A stretch of 64,000 nucleotides of DNA from Candidatus Woesearchaeota archaeon (GTDB lineage Archaea; Nanobdellota; Nanobdellia; SCGC-AAA011-G17; GW2011-AR18), in contig JAGVZM010000003.1 of assembly GCA_018302545.1 (NCBI GenBank), forward strand, positions 40,058 to 104,057. Direction: 5' to 3'. The number at the start of each line of letters is the position of its first letter. Position 1 is the stretch's first letter. A model generated the notes under the pieces. That model worked only from the letters and a program-made list of their open reading frames with translations. It did not search any database and was not told the DNA's origin. The position numbers were made by a program, and so were the translations under genes. Below, piece by piece: positions 1,395-56,456 of this stretch.

Positions 1395-2345
1395 TTGAAA
1401 ATTAAGATGAAAAAAATAACAAATACTGTATTTATAATTTTGTTTCTTGTAATATTCACTATACCTATATTTGCTGAGGATTCTATCAATAACGAATTTT
1501 CTAATGACTGTCTTACAGTAAAAGGAGGAGACGGTTCTTATTGGCTATGTGAGAGAGGTGTATTCTTGCACAATAAAAAAATGGCATTTATAGTTGAAGA
1601 AATTTCAGAAGACATAGTTAAAATAAGAGTAGATGATTCAAAAATTAGAATTAGTTTTACTAATACCTCAGAATTTGGACAAGAATCAAAGTTCGATTAT
1701 ATTGATGTAAAATATAAAATAACCTTTGAAGGTCTTGATAATAACAATACAAAAGTAAGACTAACTATAAATTCAATTACAGGAAAAGAATTAAAACAAA
1801 ATCTGCAAGTTCAAGAATGTAAACCTGGAGAAAGACGTTGTATTGATACAGCTGGAAATTTGAAGTATTCCCAACAAAATACTCAAGGATATTATGGGAT
1901 GCATAAAATATGTTGTGGTGATAATTCAAATTATGATTATAGTCCTGTTTGTGGAGATTTAAGTGGAGTTTGGAAAGATTGGCAACCCGTACCATCCTGT
2001 TCAGAAAATAAAGAAAAAACATCTAACCAAGAAGAAAAAGATGAAGAAAAACAAACAAAAGAATCAAATTCTAAAAAAATAGAAGAAAAATGTAATGGTT
2101 GTAAACAAAATGAAGTTTGCCTTCCAATAGGAACAAGATTAACTGAAGAAAATAAACCAAGATATTGCGATATTGACTTAAATATAAAAGAACAAAAAAC
2201 AAACAGTCAAAATTGCCAAAATAATTACGAATGTTCAACAAATCAATGTAGTAATAATGAGTGTGTAAATCTAACAGAAGAATTAAAAGAAACAAGAAGT
2301 CTTATACAAAAATTATTTGACTTATTAAGTAAGATTTTCGGTTAA
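1395..2345 (+). CDS. Secreted cysteine-rich protein of unknown function, with signal peptide
   Basis: N-terminal hydrophobic signal. Many Cys in CxxC and C-x-C arrangements and a K/E-rich linker. Confidence 0.5.
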   Translation: MKIKMKKITNTVFIILFLVIFTIPIFAEDSINNEFSNDCLTVKGGDGSYWLCERGVFLHNKKMAFIVEEISEDIVKIRVDDSKIRISFTNTSEFGQESKFDYIDVKYKITFEGLDNNNTKVRLTINSITGKELKQNLQVQECKPGERRCIDTAGNLKYSQQNTQGYYGMHKICCGDNSNYDYSPVCGDLSGVWKDWQPVPSCSENKEKTSNQEEKDEEKQTKESNSKKIEEKCNGCKQNEVCLPIGTRLTEENKPRYCDIDLNIKEQKTNSQNCQNNYECSTNQCSNNECVNLTEELKETRSLIQKLFDLLSKIFG

Positions 2346-2354
2346 ATTATATCT

Positions 2355-3700
2355 TCTAGTTCGCAATAACACTCTACTCCTTTAGGTCTGAGTGAATTGC
2401 GAAAATATATTCTCCAATATGTCTCTTATAGAACAATGGTGGACGACACGACAAGGGATACGCGCGTAGAACTTATAAACTAAAATTCCTAAATAATTCT
2501 AATGTTAAAAACTTACAAATTCAGAATATATCCAAACAAAAAACAAGAGATAAAACTATTAGAAACTCTAAATCTTTGTAGGTTCACCTACAATAAACAA
2601 TTAGAACTAAAGATAAACAAATATAAAGAAAATAAAGTAAATTTAACACAATTTGATCTAAATAATAACTTAATAATACTAAAAGAAGAAAATAAAGAAT
2701 TAAAACAAATTCATTCTCAAACATTACAAGATATAAATAAAAGAATTAGTTTAGCTTTTAATGGATTTTACAGAAGATTAAATAAAAGAGAACAAGTAGG
2801 TTTTCCTAGATTCAAAAGTAAATATAGATATGATTCAATAACATATCCTCAATCTGGATTCAAATTAGAAAATCAGCTTTATATTTCTAAAATAGGACAA
2901 ATAAATATTATTAAACACAGAGAAATAGAAGGTAAAGTTAAAACCTTAACAATTAAGAAAACTTCTACAAACAAATGGTTTGCATGTTTCTCAGTAGAAC
3001 AAGAAAGTAAGAGTCACTCTAATCTAACAAATGAAGAAACAATTGGAATAGATCTAGGAATAAATCACTTTTATGCAGATTCTAATGGAAATCTAGTAGA
3101 TAATCCAAAATATCTAAGAAAATCAGAGTTAAAGTTAAAGAAATTACAAAGAAAACATTCTAAAAAGTTAAAAGGTTCTAATAATAGAAATAAATCTAGA
3201 TTAAAACTAGCTAATCTACATGAATTAATAAGTAATCAAAGAAATGACTTCTTACATAAACAATCAAGACAATTAGTTAATAATTATAATACAATAGTAG
3301 TAGAAAGATTACAAATAAGTAATATGACTAAAAACCACTATTTAGCTAAATCTATAAATGATGCTTCTTGGAATAAGTTTCTACAACTACTTTCTTACAA
3401 AGTGGAAGAGACTGGTGGAAAGTTAGTAGAAATAGATCCAAGAAATACTAGTCAATTATGTATTTGTGGCAATAAAGTAGAAAAATCATTAGCTACTAGA
3501 GTGCATAGATGCAATAATTGTGGAATAGAAATGGATAGAGATCTTATGTCTGCTTTGATTATTAAGGAAAAGGGAATAAATGATTTTAGTATTATTACCG
3601 TAGGAACTACGGGAATTCAAGCCTGTCAGAGAACTTCAATAGAAGTTCAGTGAAGCAGGACGCTCGGTCCCTTTAGGGCCGAGTAGTTCACATAAAAAGA
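2355..3700 (+). mobile_element. IS200/IS605-family insertion sequence, TnpB-only (IS1341-like), about 1.35 kb
   Basis: Left-end hairpin TTCGCAAT(2360-2367)...ATTGCGAA(2396-2403). Right-end hairpin CTCGGTCCCTTTAGGGCCGAG (3663-3683). Both ends share the motif CCTTTAGGnCnGAGT. The ends are GC-richer than the background. Confidence 0.65.
2502..3653 (+). CDS. tnpB: TnpB (OrfB), RNA-guided nuclease of IS200/IS605 family
   Basis: N-terminal YKFRIYPNKKQ motif. RuvC-like segments (IGIDLGI, VVERLQIS). C-terminal zinc finger CICG...CNNCG. Confidence 0.85.
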   Translation: MLKTYKFRIYPNKKQEIKLLETLNLCRFTYNKQLELKINKYKENKVNLTQFDLNNNLIILKEENKELKQIHSQTLQDINKRISLAFNGFYRRLNKREQVGFPRFKSKYRYDSITYPQSGFKLENQLYISKIGQINIIKHREIEGKVKTLTIKKTSTNKWFACFSVEQESKSHSNLTNEETIGIDLGINHFYADSNGNLVDNPKYLRKSELKLKKLQRKHSKKLKGSNNRNKSRLKLANLHELISNQRNDFLHKQSRQLVNNYNTIVVERLQISNMTKNHYLAKSINDASWNKFLQLLSYKVEETGGKLVEIDPRNTSQLCICGNKVEKSLATRVHRCNNCGIEMDRDLMSALIIKEKGINDFSIITVGTTGIQACQRTSIEVQ

Positions 3701-11203: not shown

Positions 11204-11590
11204 TTATATATAAGGAATTTGAATTCTTAATCTTTCTTCCTCTTGCGAAATTACAGATCTCAATAATATTTGATCATCTAATTTGGTAAAATCTAATCCT
11301 AATCTCCTTTCTAAATATCTTATCGGATCTGCTGCAACTCTAAATACTAAATCTAAAGGCCCGCCTCTTCTTGTACATCCATAACAAATATATAAATTAC
11401 TTTTAGGCTTTAAGTAAAAAGAAGGTTCTTTCTCATCATGAAAAATACACAAACCTTTATAGTTTGATCCACTTGTTTGTTTTTTTACTCTATCTCCAAT
11501 TAAATCTAATCCAACAAATAAAATATCTAAATTTTCTAATGTTCTAAAAACTAAGTCTTCTTCTCCTCCAAAAAGTAAAAGTTGTTTCAT
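11204..11590 (-). CDS. Stand-alone CHC2 zinc-finger protein (bacterial DnaG primase zinc-binding-domain-like)
   Basis: CIFHDEKEPSFYLKPKSNLYICYGCTRRGG matches the CHC2 finger C-x-F-H-x-E-x-x-P-S-F...Y-x-C-x-x-C. Confidence 0.55.
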   Translation of the reverse strand: MKQLLLFGGEEDLVFRTLENLDILFVGLDLIGDRVKKQTSGSNYKGLCIFHDEKEPSFYLKPKSNLYICYGCTRRGGPLDLVFRVAADPIRYLERRLGLDFTKLDDQILLRSVISQEEERLRIQIPYI

Positions 11591-11595
11591 TATTA

Positions 11596-11681
11596 AGCCT
11601 CTGACGGGATTTGAACCCGCGATCTCCGCCTATTTAGACTATTTTACCAAGGCGATGCTCTACCAACTAAGCCACAGAGGC
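11596..11681 (-). tRNA. tRNA-Thr(GGU) with 13-nt intron at position 37/38. No encoded CCA.
   Basis: Manual fold gives acceptor GCCUCUG/CAGAGGC, D-arm with G18G19, anticodon stem UCGCC/GGCGG, loop UUGGUA|A, T-arm GCGGG-UUCAAAU-CCCGU and discriminator U. Confidence 0.85.
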
Positions 11682-12737: not shown

Positions 12738-14159
12738 TTAACCAGCAATCATATATAATCTCTCTCTATATTCAGCGCCTTTACCATCTCTATTAATTTT
12801 ATTTCTTAACTTCCTTAAAGCTTTATAATAATTTTGTTCTACTGCTTGACGGCTTATACCCCATGAACTAGCTATATCAACAAAACTTTCTTTTTTTCCA
12901 GAAAAACCAATTTTTCTCAAAAGTGCATCCCTTTGTCTTTTAGTTAGTTTAGATTCACCCATTAATAATTGAAGATCTGCTCTCAAAGCAAATCTTTCCT
13001 GTCTTAAAAATGATTCTTCTAAATCTACTGAGAATTTCTCATCTTCTAATAATTCAGAGTAGTCCTCTCCATCTTCATTAGACTGAGCATGTATACTGCT
13101 TGTTTTTGGCATCTCTAATAAAACAGTTTCTATTATTTTACATTCTTTAGCAATAACCTCTGATAATGAACCTTCAAAACCATTAAGGTTAGATCCACTT
13201 TCTTTTAGTTTACCAATTAAACCTTCAAAAGTATCACTTTTTTTCCTATCTCTTTTTAATTTTTTAGCTATTTGATGTTCTAAAGATCTTATTGCAACTT
13301 CTTGTTCAGAAGGATCCCTACGTAATTCTTCACTCAATTCTTTTTTAACTCTTTTAATCTTATTATATTTTATACTCCTATCATTAGGTACTCTTATAGT
13401 CCCACTTTGATCTTTTGATCCCCGTATCATATTCCCTCTAATCCTATGCTCTGCATAAGTAAGAAATCTTAAACCAGACCTATGATCATAGAGTTCTACA
13501 GCTCTTTCTAATCCTAAATTTCCTTCTTGAATAGCATCTAAAAGAGATAAGCCCCTTCTTCGTCTTCCATGAGCGAGAGGCACAACTAGATGTAGATTAC
13601 CTTCTATCAACTTACTCTTTATCCCCCTATACATATAAAGATTTTCTTCAATTCCATCTTTGACACTTTTAAACTCTGAATAATCTCCATCCTGAATAAC
13701 ACTTCTAAGATCTGAAGCTGCTTTTCTAATCACAATTGGAGGAATCTCATTAAAGAATCCTCTATATACTTCTTCAGATTTTTCATCACCAATTAGAGCT
13801 TCCATTAATCTTCTATAAGGATGTTTTTCAGGCAAGGAACCAAAACCATCACTTTCAAAATTTTTAATTTGTTCTTTAGAAAATAAACGCGTTTTTGAAG
13901 TTCCCCTATAACTTAAATAGTGTGGAACTAACAAGTACATTCCTGTTCTTCTTGAATAAACTCCTGTTGCTGAATAAGGGAATACTTGTAATTCTGTTGT
14001 AACAAGATAAGAAGCTAAATTATCATGAACAGCTGTTAACTCACCAACAATTCTTCTTTCATCACACTCATCGATCTTAGGTGTTTTAGCAATATTCCTT
14101 AAATATATTGTTTCTGCACTAAGTCCATTATCTGTATTATTTTTATTTTGTTTTTTCAT
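12738..14159 (-). CDS. RNA polymerase sigma-70 family factor (regions 1.2, 2, 3 and 4 all present)
   Basis: Region 2 GLSLLDAIQEGNLGLERAVELYDHRSGLRFLTYAEHRIRGNMIRGSKDQSGTIRVP versus the RpoD consensus [56 protein letters not shown]. Region 4 HTH LTKRQRDALL...ISRQAVEQ. Confidence 0.8.
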   Translation of the reverse strand: MKKQNKNNTDNGLSAETIYLRNIAKTPKIDECDERRIVGELTAVHDNLASYLVTTELQVFPYSATGVYSRRTGMYLLVPHYLSYRGTSKTRLFSKEQIKNFESDGFGSLPEKHPYRRLMEALIGDEKSEEVYRGFFNEIPPIVIRKAASDLRSVIQDGDYSEFKSVKDGIEENLYMYRGIKSKLIEGNLHLVVPLAHGRRRRGLSLLDAIQEGNLGLERAVELYDHRSGLRFLTYAEHRIRGNMIRGSKDQSGTIRVPNDRSIKYNKIKRVKKELSEELRRDPSEQEVAIRSLEHQIAKKLKRDRKKSDTFEGLIGKLKESGSNLNGFEGSLSEVIAKECKIIETVLLEMPKTSSIHAQSNEDGEDYSELLEDEKFSVDLEESFLRQERFALRADLQLLMGESKLTKRQRDALLRKIGFSGKKESFVDIASSWGISRQAVEQNYYKALRKLRNKINRDGKGAEYRERLYMIAG

Positions 14160-14225
14160 AGGATATTCAGAAGAGCTTTAAAAAGTTTTAAAAGACTTGC
14201 GCTATTCAAATATAATTTTAAAAAT

Positions 14226-14368
14226 GGTGCGAGGGGTAGGATTTGAACCTACGGAGGCCTAAGCCACAGGATTTCTCCCATTCGGTCTTAAGTTTGGCAA
14301 AGCTTCAGAGCTTACCTGCCCATCTAGTCCTTCCTTAAGGAAGATTGACCAGGCTCTGGTACCCTCGC
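14226..14368 (-). tRNA. Intron-containing class-II-like tRNA (Leu/Ser type, isotype unresolved), 143 nt, CCA encoded
   Basis: Acceptor GCGAGGG/CCCUCGC + A + CCA. T-arm GUAGG-UUCAAAU-CCUAC. D-loop GAGCCUGGUCAAU. Variable hairpin GGC-UUAG-GCC. About 55 nt of extra sequence contains two tetraloop hairpins. Confidence 0.6.
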
Positions 14369-14522
14369 ATAAATGTAAGGATCAAGAATTGTTTTATAAA
14401 CGTTTTTATTCTAATAAGATTTATTTCCTTTCTACTAAATTAGTTTTAAAATAAGATACCCCTCACTATGGATACAACTCTAAAGTAGTAATATTTATAA
14501 AGAATACCTGCCCCTATTTTCT

Positions 14523-16085: not shown

Positions 16086-18674
16086 TCATTTTAACAAATC
16101 TACATCATGATGTCTGCTTTCTTTCATTCCAGCACCAGTAATCCTAATAAACTCTGCATTTTTCCATAACTCATTAATACTCTTAGATCCACAATAACTC
16201 ATCCCACTTTTCAATCCACCAATTAATTGGTAAATAACTTCTGTAACTTTCCCTCTATAAGGAATAGTCCCCTCAACGCCTTCAGGAACAACATCACTTA
16301 TGTCTGCATCATCTTTACCACTTTCTCTTTCTTTCTTACTTTTATTTGCACCAAAACCAGCCATTCCCCTATAAATTTTATATTTCCTTCCTTCCTTTAT
16401 TATTGTTTGTCCAGGACTTTCATCAGTTCCTGCTAACATATTTCCTAACATAACTGTAGAAGCTCCAGCTGCTAAAGCCTTAACAATATCTCCAGATTGT
16501 TTAATTCCACCATCAGCAATAACTGTAATTCCCACTTCATTCGCAACTTTAGCAGAATCCATAACAGCCGTTAATTGAGGCACACCACAACCAGTCTGAA
16601 TTCTAGTTATACAAATTGAATTATGAACTATTGCATTATTTGCTATAAAACTATGAGTAGGACAATCTATTTCCAAATCATAAACTTTAACACATAAATC
16701 TGTTTTTTCATTTTTTAATAATTTTACAACTTGATAATCTTCAGATAATCTTTTTTCTCCTGTATTTATTATTTCAGAAATATAACTTTGGCTAAAATTA
16801 TCCAAATTAGCATTTTTCAAATTACCTTTACTAATTTTCTTTTTTTGATTATTTGGAAATACACCTTTTAATAAATAGTGAACAATATTAAATAATTCTA
16901 TTAATTTTATTGAAGTATTTGAAAATCTTATTCTTCCCCTTTCTTCTATATTTCCATCTGTATCAATTAAACCATCTAAAATACCTTGCAAATATTCTCT
17001 ATTATTAATTAAATATTTTTGTGGTAATTCTTTATTTTTCTTTTTTCCAAAAGATTGTAAAAAATCTGAAAACGGTTTATAATATAAAATAACTTGAATT
17101 ATATTCTCTTTATATGTTACTTTACATTCTTTATTAAAGATATTTATTATAAATTTCATTAATTTATTAACTTTATCAATTTCATGCTTCCCAAAATACC
17201 ATCTAACAGAACCAACACGAGAATTTTTCTTTGAAATGCCGCTATGTGAAGACCCATCACCTAAAAATGTTCCAAAAATATAACCTAATTCATAACAAGG
17301 TTCAAGACTTACATCATTTAGATATTTATATCGAATTATCCAATTACCCCCAACTCTTTTTTTCAAATTAATTTTAAAATATTGTTCTAGTTCAAACTTT
17401 ATTTCTCTAGGAATTAATAAAACATCTTGTCTAAAATCTTTTACTTCTTTCCACTTGTATTTTGAAGCTTTAGGAATTGTTTTGCTTTGTTTTTGTAATA
17501 ATCTTACATAACCCCTACTTTGTATAGTTTCAATTGAAGAAGTATTCAAGTCTCCTACCCAATACCTATGTTCTGGAGTTACATGGGTTTCTTCATAAAA
17601 TATAGAGTTTCTAATTTTTCTAACTTCTTTAATTCCAGTACAAAATGCTTTTTTAACATTCACAGGTTCTCCATTCTTATTTATTACTCTTTCACCAGCC
17701 TTAATTTCTTCAATATTTTTATAAATTCCATTAGACATTAATACCCTAGTTCCTGCAGCAAAACAGCCCCCTCCAACTCCGACCTTAATACAATCTGCTC
17801 CCGCATTAATTAAATCTAAAGTTCCTTCAGCTGTAGCAACATTTCCAGCAATTATTTGAACATCTCCAAATCTATCTTTAATATTTTTTATAGTAGAAAG
17901 AGTCATATCATGATGTCCATGCGCAACATCTATACAAAGAACATCACATCCAACCTTAATTAAAGCTTCAGTTCTATCCAAATAATCTCCTTTAACCCCA
18001 ACAGCAGCACCAACTAATAATCTCCCTTTCTTATCTTTAGTAGCCAGAGGATGTTTCTCTCTATTAGTTATATCCTTAGCAGTAATTAACCCTTTTAAAA
18101 TTCCTTTACTATCAATTAAAGGAAGTTTCTCAATTTTATTTTGCTTTAATATTTCTTTTGCATTTTCAATATCTTTATTTATGTCACCAATAATTGATTT
18201 TTCTTTTGGAGTCATCAAATCTTTAATTTGTTTTAATAAATTGTCCTCAAACATCATATCTGTGTTTGTTAAAATTCCCACATATCTTCCAACATTATCT
18301 GTAATGGGAATTCCTGTAATATTTTTATCCTGCATTAAAATTTTAGCATCTTTTAAATTATGTTCTGGAGTTAAAGTATAAGGATTCTCTATTACAATTG
18401 CTTCTGATCTTTTAACTTTTAAAATTTCTTTAACTTGGTCGTCTATAGTTAAAAATCTATGAATAATTCCAAGACCCCCTTGTCTTGCCATTTCAATTGC
18501 CATTGCACTTTCCGTAACAGTATCCATATTGGCGCTTATTATAGGCATATTTAGTTTAATTTTATTAGTTAAAAAAGAACTTATATCAACATTTTTTCTA
18601 GAATATATATTGGAAAGTTTAGGAACTAATAAAACATCATCATAAGCTAATGCCTCTCTTATTTCATTATTCAT
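16086..18674 (-). CDS. guaB: Inosine-5'-monophosphate dehydrogenase containing an in-frame intein
   Basis: N-extein carries IMPDH and CBS domains. Catalytic loop VGVGGG|SICITR is split by 382 aa starting with Cys and ending HN. The intein holds two LAGLIDADG blocks. Confidence 0.9.
16620..17765 (-). other. Intein (382 aa) with LAGLIDADG homing-endonuclease domain, inserted at the IMPDH catalytic-Cys loop
   Basis: N-terminal Cys1 (CFAAGTRV). C-terminal ...IVHN with +1 Ser. Endonuclease blocks [13 protein letters not shown] and [14 protein letters not shown]. Confidence 0.8.
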
Positions 18675-56154: not shown

Positions 56155-56230
56155 ACAAATTCCGTTTTCATCTAATTCCAGTCATTATCCAACCAAAAGC
56201 TTTAAAAACACCCCATTTTTGCTATTTAAT

Positions 56231-56403
56231 GGGCGGTCATAGTGGCTTGGTTCCACCCGATCTCATCGATCTATTCAAGATTGAAAGATCTGAGGAATTC
56301 GAACTCGGAATGAGTTTATCTCTATAAATTCACGAGAGAGTTAAGCAAGCCGACGTTTTATGTTGTACTGTTCTTCGAACGGGAAGCATATTTCGCTGCC
56401 CAC
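56231..56403 (+). rRNA. rrf: 5S rRNA, expanded to about 173 nt with two extra hairpins
   Basis: GGGCGGUCAUAGUGG...CCACCCGAUCUCAU...UUCGAACUCGGAA...UUAAGC...GUACUG...CGCUGCCC. The ends pair (GGGCGG/CUGCCC). A TATA-like GCTATTTAAT lies upstream. Confidence 0.7.
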
Positions 56404-56456
56404 CTTATTTTCTCTTAAAGAATAAAGTTTATATAATATCAATTTCTCAAGATTAT

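Follow-up and report, generated by a model that had tools for sequence, protein, structure and literature searches.

The gene described here is, with high confidence, a functional tRNA-Leu(UAA) gene that encodes the main leucine tRNA of a Candidatus Woesearchaeota archaeon (DPANN) and is cut by three BHB introns. It lies on the minus strand of the 64-kb stretch of DNA that we analysed (the window), where the tRNA-like gene with its CCA occupies 14225-14368 (144 nt) and contains 56 nt of extra, non-tRNA sequence in three segments. The first-pass annotation had set the gene at 14226-14368 (143 nt), with about 55 nt of extra sequence that was consistent with two BHB introns, of which one interrupted the D-arm. 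The amount of extra sequence is borne out, as are the upper end of the gene, the non-canonical BHB introns and the D-arm site, but the lower end was one base short, cutting off the final A of the CCA, and the introns number three rather than two. Read 5′ to 3′, exons and introns alternate as GCGAGGGUACCAGAGCCUGGUCAA UCUUCCUUAAGGAAGGACUAG AUGGGCAGG UAAGCUCUGAAGCUUUGCCAA ACUUAAG ACCGAAUGGGAGAA AUCCUGUGGCUUAGGCCUCCGUAGGUUCAAAUCCUACCCCUCGCACCA. The exon/intron anatomy, the BHB geometry, the conservation of the sites, the presence or absence of introns among relatives and the archaeal host are established directly; from the sequences we infer that the three introns are spliced.

Exons, predicted mature tRNA and flanks

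Exon 1 (14345..14368, minus strand, 24 nt) covers Sprinzl positions 1-21, with the 5′ acceptor strand GCGAGGG, U8 and A9, the D-stem strand CCAG and the D-loop AGCCUGGUCAA. It is near-identical to exon 1 of the orthologs, including that of the relative L121, and its D-loop is common to about 100 archaeal Leu genes. Exon 2 (AUGGGCAGG; 14315..14323, minus strand, 9 nt) supplies A22, the 3′ D-stem strand UGG, G26 and the 5′ anticodon-stem strand CAGG (27-30), and exon 3 (ACUUAAG; 14287..14293, minus strand, 7 nt) supplies A31, C32, U33, the anticodon UAA (14288-14290) and G37. Exon 4 (14228..14272, minus strand, 45 nt) runs from A38 through the 3′ anticodon-stem strand, the variable arm GGC-UUAG-GCC, the T-arm and the 3′ acceptor strand to A73. 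The four exons are colinear within 144 nt, which sets the gene apart from split and permuted tRNA genes; with three introns, at 21/22, 30/31 and the canonical 37/38, it is a multiple-intron gene.

Splicing in silico yields an 85-nt tRNA, 88 nt with the CCA, which ARAGORN calls as a class II tRNA-Leu(taa). The cloverleaf has 7 of 7 acceptor pairs, 5 of 5 T-stem pairs, G18 and G19, U33, the T-loop UUCAAAU, a long variable arm and A73. The anticodon UAA, the hairpin borne by the long variable arm and the discriminator A73 are those of a class II archaeal tRNA-Leu. Much of this had been read correctly at the outset: the acceptor stem GCGAGGG/CCCUCGC, the T-arm GUAGG-UUCAAAU-CCUAC, the D-loop GAGCCUGGUCAA and the variable-arm hairpin were all recovered, and the suggested Leu/Ser-like class II tRNA can now be narrowed to Leu with anticodon UAA. 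It had also been held that a failure to fold would point to a pseudogene; the spliced product folds as a complete cloverleaf with all exon stems intact. In the long ORFs of the window UUA makes up 66% of the leucine codons, and tRNA-Leu(UAA) should therefore be needed in quantity.

Standard tools overlook the gene. ARAGORN, proposed in the first pass as a check, reports no tRNA in the window in its default mode, and gives a clear isotype for the spliced sequence. Rfam at its gathering threshold leaves the gene unmatched and reports only the other tRNA gene, at 11596-11681; when the threshold is relaxed, the Leu gene matches by its T-arm only, with 14.4 bits. Two other ARAGORN solutions were rejected, each having no BHB and conflicting with the orthologs: Arg(CCU) with a 52-nt intron, from the intron mode, and Phe(GAA), after removal of intron 1 only. 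With both intron 1 and intron 2 removed, ARAGORN itself calls Leu(UAA) with a 14-nt intron beside the anticodon. That the main leucine decoder of an organism is missed by two common tRNA finders (ARAGORN, Rfam) bears on claims of "missing tRNAs" or a reduced translation machinery in DPANN.

A TATA-like box, TTTATAAA (14393..14400, minus strand), lies at -32 to -25 from tRNA position 1 and is the putative promoter; comparable boxes in the window stand at -30/-23 of the tRNA-Thr gene and at -28/-21 of the 5S gene. The run of five T directly 3′ of the CCA (14220..14224, minus strand) is a candidate oligo-T terminator. The genomically encoded CCA had been noticed in the first pass and is real (14225..14227, minus strand, directly after A73). 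CCA follows the discriminator in 0 of about 26 DPANN orthologs; the syntenic ortholog in L121 has CTT in its place, and the tRNA-Thr gene 2.6 kb away has no encoded CCA. It looks incidental, without known consequence. ARAGORN found no further tRNA genes in about 6 kb to the left and about 4 kb to the right of the window.

The host is an archaeon: the window encodes ABCE1/RLI, aTrm56, TrmB regulators and a family B polymerase. Its GC content is 27-31%, and the NCBI protein records MBS3167926-45 (locus tags J4216_*, on a 186-kb contig) are named Candidatus Woesearchaeota archaeon. The tRNA sequence is identical in a contig of a separate ENA assembly, and the gene is not a one-assembler artefact.

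Intron geometry

Splice sites were placed by the archaeal rule, in which the central helix joins four exon nucleotides to four intron nucleotides, the former ending 2 nt short of the 5′ splice site and the latter 2 nt short of the 3′ one, and the splice site falls after the second base of each 3-nt bulge (marked ↓ below). The rule was verified on the window's own tRNA-Thr(GGU), where a 13-nt 37/38 intron pairs UUGG with CUAA and has the bulges UA↓A and AU↓A. This tRNA-Thr gene (11596-11681, minus strand; canonical intron at about 11632-11644) scores 60 bits in Rfam and is missed by ARAGORN in default mode.

Intron 1 (UCUUCCUUAAGGAAGGACUAG; 14324..14344, minus strand, 21 nt) lies between A21 and A22 at the end of the D-loop (site 21/22). 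It has the central helix GGUC/GACU, the 5′ bulge AA↓U, the inner helix CUUCC/GGAAG and the 3′ bulge AG↓A. Intron 2 (UAAGCUCUGAAGCUUUGCCAA; 14294..14314, minus strand, 21 nt) separates G30 from A31 in the anticodon stem (site 30/31), with the central helix GGCA/UGCC, the 5′ bulge GG↓U, the inner helix AAGCU/AGCUU and the 3′ bulge AA↓A. The two introns share one 1+5+4+5+4+2 nt plan, and each combines a 4-bp central helix, 3-nt bulges and a 5-bp inner helix, as a BHB should. The hairpins CUUCC-UUAA-GGAAG and AAGCU-CUGA-AGCUU, on which the suggestion of two introns had been based, are present and form these inner helices. When sequences were shuffled in place and scored for a 4-bp central and a 5-bp inner helix at fixed boundaries, the geometry was matched by 23 of 100,000 shuffles for intron 1 and by 6 of 100,000 for intron 2.

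Both modules co-occur in the minimum-energy fold of the whole precursor, and the module of intron 2 is in addition the local minimum-energy fold. The fold of the precursor also contains an alternative pairing, of the AG in the 3′ bulge of intron 1 with C17 U17a, which is not kept in the relative L118. The outer exon-exon helix comprises 0 bp in intron 1 and 1 bp in intron 2. Both are therefore formally relaxed, HBh'-type motifs, and with the outer helix nearly absent they would need an endonuclease that tolerates HBh' motifs outside the anticodon loop. No further copies of the intron hairpins were found in the window, so nothing points to a repeated mobile element.

Intron 3 (ACCGAAUGGGAGAA; 14273..14286, minus strand, 14 nt) lies between G37 and A38, the canonical 37/38 site. 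The first-pass annotation could not place a single canonical intron there. Indeed none explains all of the extra sequence, yet a 14-nt one exists; it was overlooked because intron 2 sits only 7 nt upstream and splits the anticodon stem, and it is visible only once the 30/31 intron is taken out. Its BHB is relaxed, with CUU/GAG paired, an A35.G mismatch (3 of 4 pairs), an inner helix of 1-2 bp and the 3′ bulge AA↓A, and is equalled by 6,025 of 100,000 shuffles (6%). The segment is predicted to be an intron on the grounds of its canonical position, the anticodon loop that its removal restores and the orthologous intron in L121.

Relatives and shared intron sites

A scan of GCGAGGGTANNNNAGCCTGGTCAA against one genome per species returned 108 loci. 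Intronless Leu(UAA) genes of Nanoarchaeota and Woesearchaeota (L005, L068, L069 and L080) read ...GCAGGACTTAAGATCCTGT..., which is the predicted spliced product, and orthologs that have no 37/38 intron read CTTAAGATCCTGT at that place. For 32 interrupted Leu genes we used a custom spliced aligner that jumps only at BHB-compatible site pairs; an earlier unconstrained alignment had been misled by 30/31 introns starting ACTCAG, a decoy for the anticodon loop. All 32 genes splice to 85-88 nt, and 31 of them are called tRNA-Leu by ARAGORN; the exception, L111, has an undetermined call and a 4-base anticodon.

The spliced alignment of these 32 Leu genes places an intron at site 21/22 in 12 genes, at 30/31 in 16 and at 37/38 in 21, while the variable arm and the T-loop are each interrupted in three. 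The 21/22 intron is homologous in L118 and L121, and nine further Leu genes have an intron at this site. At 30/31 the central helix covaries over 11 distinct orthologs (GGCA/UGCC, GGCA/UGCU, CGCA/UGCG, CGCG/CGCG and CGGC/GCCG): 97.7% of cells are paired, both partners vary in three of the four pairs, and none of 500 shuffles scores as high. The test leans to structure, since only boundaries with at least 3 of 4 pairs were admitted to it.

Introns at 21/22 also occur in Methanomassiliicoccales, where tRNA-Leu(CAA) genes (L047, L063, L073, L079 and L094) carry a 27-28-nt BHB intron that uses the central-helix strand GGUC, as does intron 1 of the window gene; this could reflect a preferred insertion site or an old intron. 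A metagenome scan for the 5′ exon retrieved only two loci, L110 and L111, both from another lineage.

Close relatives were reached via the neighbouring macro-domain gene. In L121 (Logan SRR22388208) the tRNA gene lies directly upstream of the macro gene, as it does in the window. This gene (1839-2048, minus strand) is 210 nt long, with five BHB introns, at 15/16 (a new site), 21/22, 30/31, 37/38 and in the T-loop, so that it shares all three introns of the window gene and has two more. The 30/31 introns of the two genes are identical at 18 of 21 positions and the 37/38 introns at 13 of 14. In silico the L121 gene splices to an 85-nt Leu(UAA) with 7 differences from the window tRNA, among them the compensatory change of A4:U69 to G4:C69. 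The gene in L118 (JGI 3300000571) is cut by the contig end; it keeps the homologous 21/22 intron and then reads GGGCAGG↓ACT, the exon 2-exon 3 junction predicted for a gene without the 30/31 intron. This case of presence and absence is the strongest support for the predicted splice sites short of RNA data. No tRNA-Leu was found in the other macro-gene relatives (L119, L120, L122 and L123).

The relatives also weigh against a decaying pseudogene, or a tRNA remnant that has accumulated insertions and is no longer functional. Such a remnant would fit the failure of two standard tools to recognise the gene, and an encoded CCA that is odd for the lineage, but we consider it very unlikely: no exon stem is broken and no universally conserved base missing, the BHB geometry of the insertions is exact and falls at sites shared by many lineages, and the locus is kept with its introns in the syntenic L121, where a stem has changed in a compensatory way. 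The gene stands between a TATA-like box and a T-run, moreover, and UUA is the dominant Leu codon.

A gene with two introns, in which only the hairpin segments are removed and the remainder is mature tRNA, is highly improbable, even though strong structure is confined to the two hairpin insertions and the BHB of the third is weak. It would leave 14 nt between G37 and A38 and hence a 21-nt anticodon loop, at the very place where ARAGORN calls a 14-nt intron, where orthologs lacking a 37/38 intron read CTTAAGATCCTGT and where L121 has a near-identical 14-mer (13/14).

It is scarcely credible that the insertions are removed or tolerated without EndA, whether they are taken for self-splicing introns, for expansion segments that stay in the tRNA or for an error of assembly. 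In favour, bacterial tRNA-Leu(UAA) is the classic home of group I introns and an EndA gene was not seen in the 64-kb window. But group I and group II introns are far longer than 14-21 nt, no Rfam intron family matches at the locus, a tRNA that kept its insertions in the D-loop and the anticodon stem would lose its L-shape, and an artefact is contradicted by the identical second assembly and by homologous introns in independent samples (L118, L121). The group I intron of bacterial and plastid tRNA-Leu(UAA) does interrupt the same tRNA species as in the window gene, but it is one ribozyme that lies inside the anticodon, is longer than 200 nt and splices itself. The three mini-introns of the window gene, 14-21 nt long, predicted to be spliced by proteins and located at other positions, are not of that type.

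Predicted splicing and comparison with known systems

For the gene with three BHB introns we propose the following pathway, of which the enzymes and the order of intron removal are those that we infer. Transcription starting downstream of the TATA-like box and ending at the oligo-T run would give a precursor of about 145-150 nt. Introns 1 and 2 would fold independently as compact 21-nt hairpin modules and be cut locally; in each module four exon and four intron bases would form the central helix between two 3-nt bulges, EndA would cleave both bulges and an RtcB-type ligase would join the exons. Since G25-A28, bases of the D-stem and anticodon stem, are tied up in the central helix of intron 2, the anticodon stem could form only after intron 2 has been removed, and since this stem is the outer helix that presents the 37/38 intron, intron 3 would most likely leave last. 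A dependence of this type has been described for archaeal tRNA introns that lie close together (PMC8450103). The end product would be the 85-nt class II tRNA-Leu(UAA), or 88 nt with the CCA.

Pfam scans found no EndA or RtcB gene within the 64-kb window, and we assume that both are located elsewhere in the genome. An RNA 3′-terminal phosphate cyclase (RTC) gene lies about 2 kb past the right window end (L116:1027-2043); RTC belongs to RNA end-healing/ligation chemistry and is not evidence for the splicing ligase itself.

Multi-intron, BHB-spliced tRNA genes are known mainly from Thermoproteales and Thaumarchaeota, and the stated maximum for archaeal tRNA genes is three introns per gene (PMC4033280; PMC8450103). 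The window gene belongs to this known kind, and is at, not beyond, the published maximum. Those of the Thermoproteales (Pyrobaculum, Thermofilum) are credited to Sugahara et al. 2007/2008 in PMC4033280 and PMC8450103. Like the window gene, they have several BHB introns per gene, up to three, including D-arm and anticodon-stem sites, and their introns are close enough to impose a removal order. Unlike these hyperthermophilic crenarchaea, the host here is a mesophile-like DPANN archaeon with 29% GC, and the two non-canonical introns of its gene are minimal 21-nt modules. Its endonuclease is expected to be an L3-loop EndA, whereas that of Thermoproteales is an (alpha-beta)2 enzyme with the crenarchaeal loop. 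Leu genes of Nitrososphaerales/Thaumarchaeota (L075, L084; the tRNAscan-SE 2.0 BHB model set) also have a 30/31 intron with a covarying central helix, but they belong to another phylum and their intron sequences are unrelated to those of the window gene; the common site may go back to shared descent or to repeated insertion.

The accessible text of Kaneta et al. 2018 (PMC5829648) reports increased tRNA gene disruption in DPANN with L3-loop EndA, names one Woesearchaeota and one Pacearchaeota genome as surveyed, and ascribes incomplete DPANN tRNA sets to undetected disrupted tRNA genes; it gives neither the sites of introns nor their number in each gene for Woesearchaeota. Superphylum and phenomenon are the same as here, and the window gene would be an example of such an overlooked disrupted tRNA; neither the gene nor its MAG is included in the survey as that text describes it.

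By itself the gene has little biological weight: it is a clean, well-supported case of an oddity already familiar from archaea. A complete BHB module could hardly be designed smaller than its 21-nt introns, which would be good substrates for the study of DPANN endonuclease specificity. The relatives, which have from none to five introns at shared sites and include a precise case of presence and absence, are useful material for studying intron gain and loss.

Intron load of the lineage and neighbouring features

The tRNA-Leu(UAA) gene of L098 (plus strand, from 5313) is 256 nt long with five BHB introns, and that of L065 (minus strand, start 4197 of the reverse strand) is 193 nt long with four. 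Both sequences are GTDB representative MAGs, and the L098 tRNA is near-identical to the Woesearchaeota ones. The L065, L098 and L121 genes splice in silico to an 85-86-nt tRNA accepted by ARAGORN. With the four and five introns predicted from their sequences, these three genes exceed the published maximum of three; a search for archaeal tRNAs with four introns found nothing relevant in the searchable literature.

The 5S rRNA gene of the window (56229-56404, plus strand) is 176 nt long, compared with the usual length of about 120 nt, and has a 68-nt insertion at helix III/loop C; it scores 33.9 bits in Rfam, below the gathering score of 38. It appears to carry two BHB introns. Candidate 1 (56267-56297, plus strand, 31 nt) has the central helix UCUC/GAGG. 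Candidate 2 (56310-56338, plus strand, 29 nt) has the 4-bp central helix CUCG/CGAG and a 9-bp inner helix, a geometry matched by 1 of 100,000 shuffles. After splicing, the 5S would be 116 nt, with the loop C consensus CUCAUUUCGAACUCGGAAGUUAAGC restored and a three-way junction fold. The alignment was guided by the gene's own flanks and a consensus. A search for relatives of the 5S gene via synteny retrieved none, as in related genomes the gene next to it lies apart from 5S. The searchable literature holds no report of BHB introns in 5S rRNA.

Because L121 and L098 have five introns and L065 four, where the published maximum is three, and the 5S gene adds two candidates, a Woesearchaeota lineage may have an unusually active BHB-intron system, with more introns in its stable-RNA genes than any described archaeon, a reading that we regard as evenly balanced between true and false. 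If it is true, the endonuclease of the lineage must accept minimal BHB modules at nearly any place in a structured RNA, and many of the "missing" tRNAs of DPANN would be hidden multi-intron genes.

Several other features of the window deserve mention. A 473-aa ORF with sigma-70 regions 2, 3 and 4 (12738-14159, minus strand) adjoins the tRNA-Leu gene in this archaeal genome; a homolog search gave no close relatives, the best match being bacterial RpoD at 29-34% identity. A small Sigma70_r4 protein is encoded beside the macro gene in the relative L123. A DnaG-type zinc-ribbon ORF lies nearby, at 11204-11590. The IMP dehydrogenase gene (16086-18674, minus strand) is split by an intein (Hom_end_hint), and its homolog in L119 has 480 aa and no intein. 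A TnpB/OrfB_IS605 gene occupies 2502-3653 on the plus strand; its 3′ end and downstream flank (3610-3693) form a GC-rich island in a genome of 29% GC, which may be the guide (omega) RNA.
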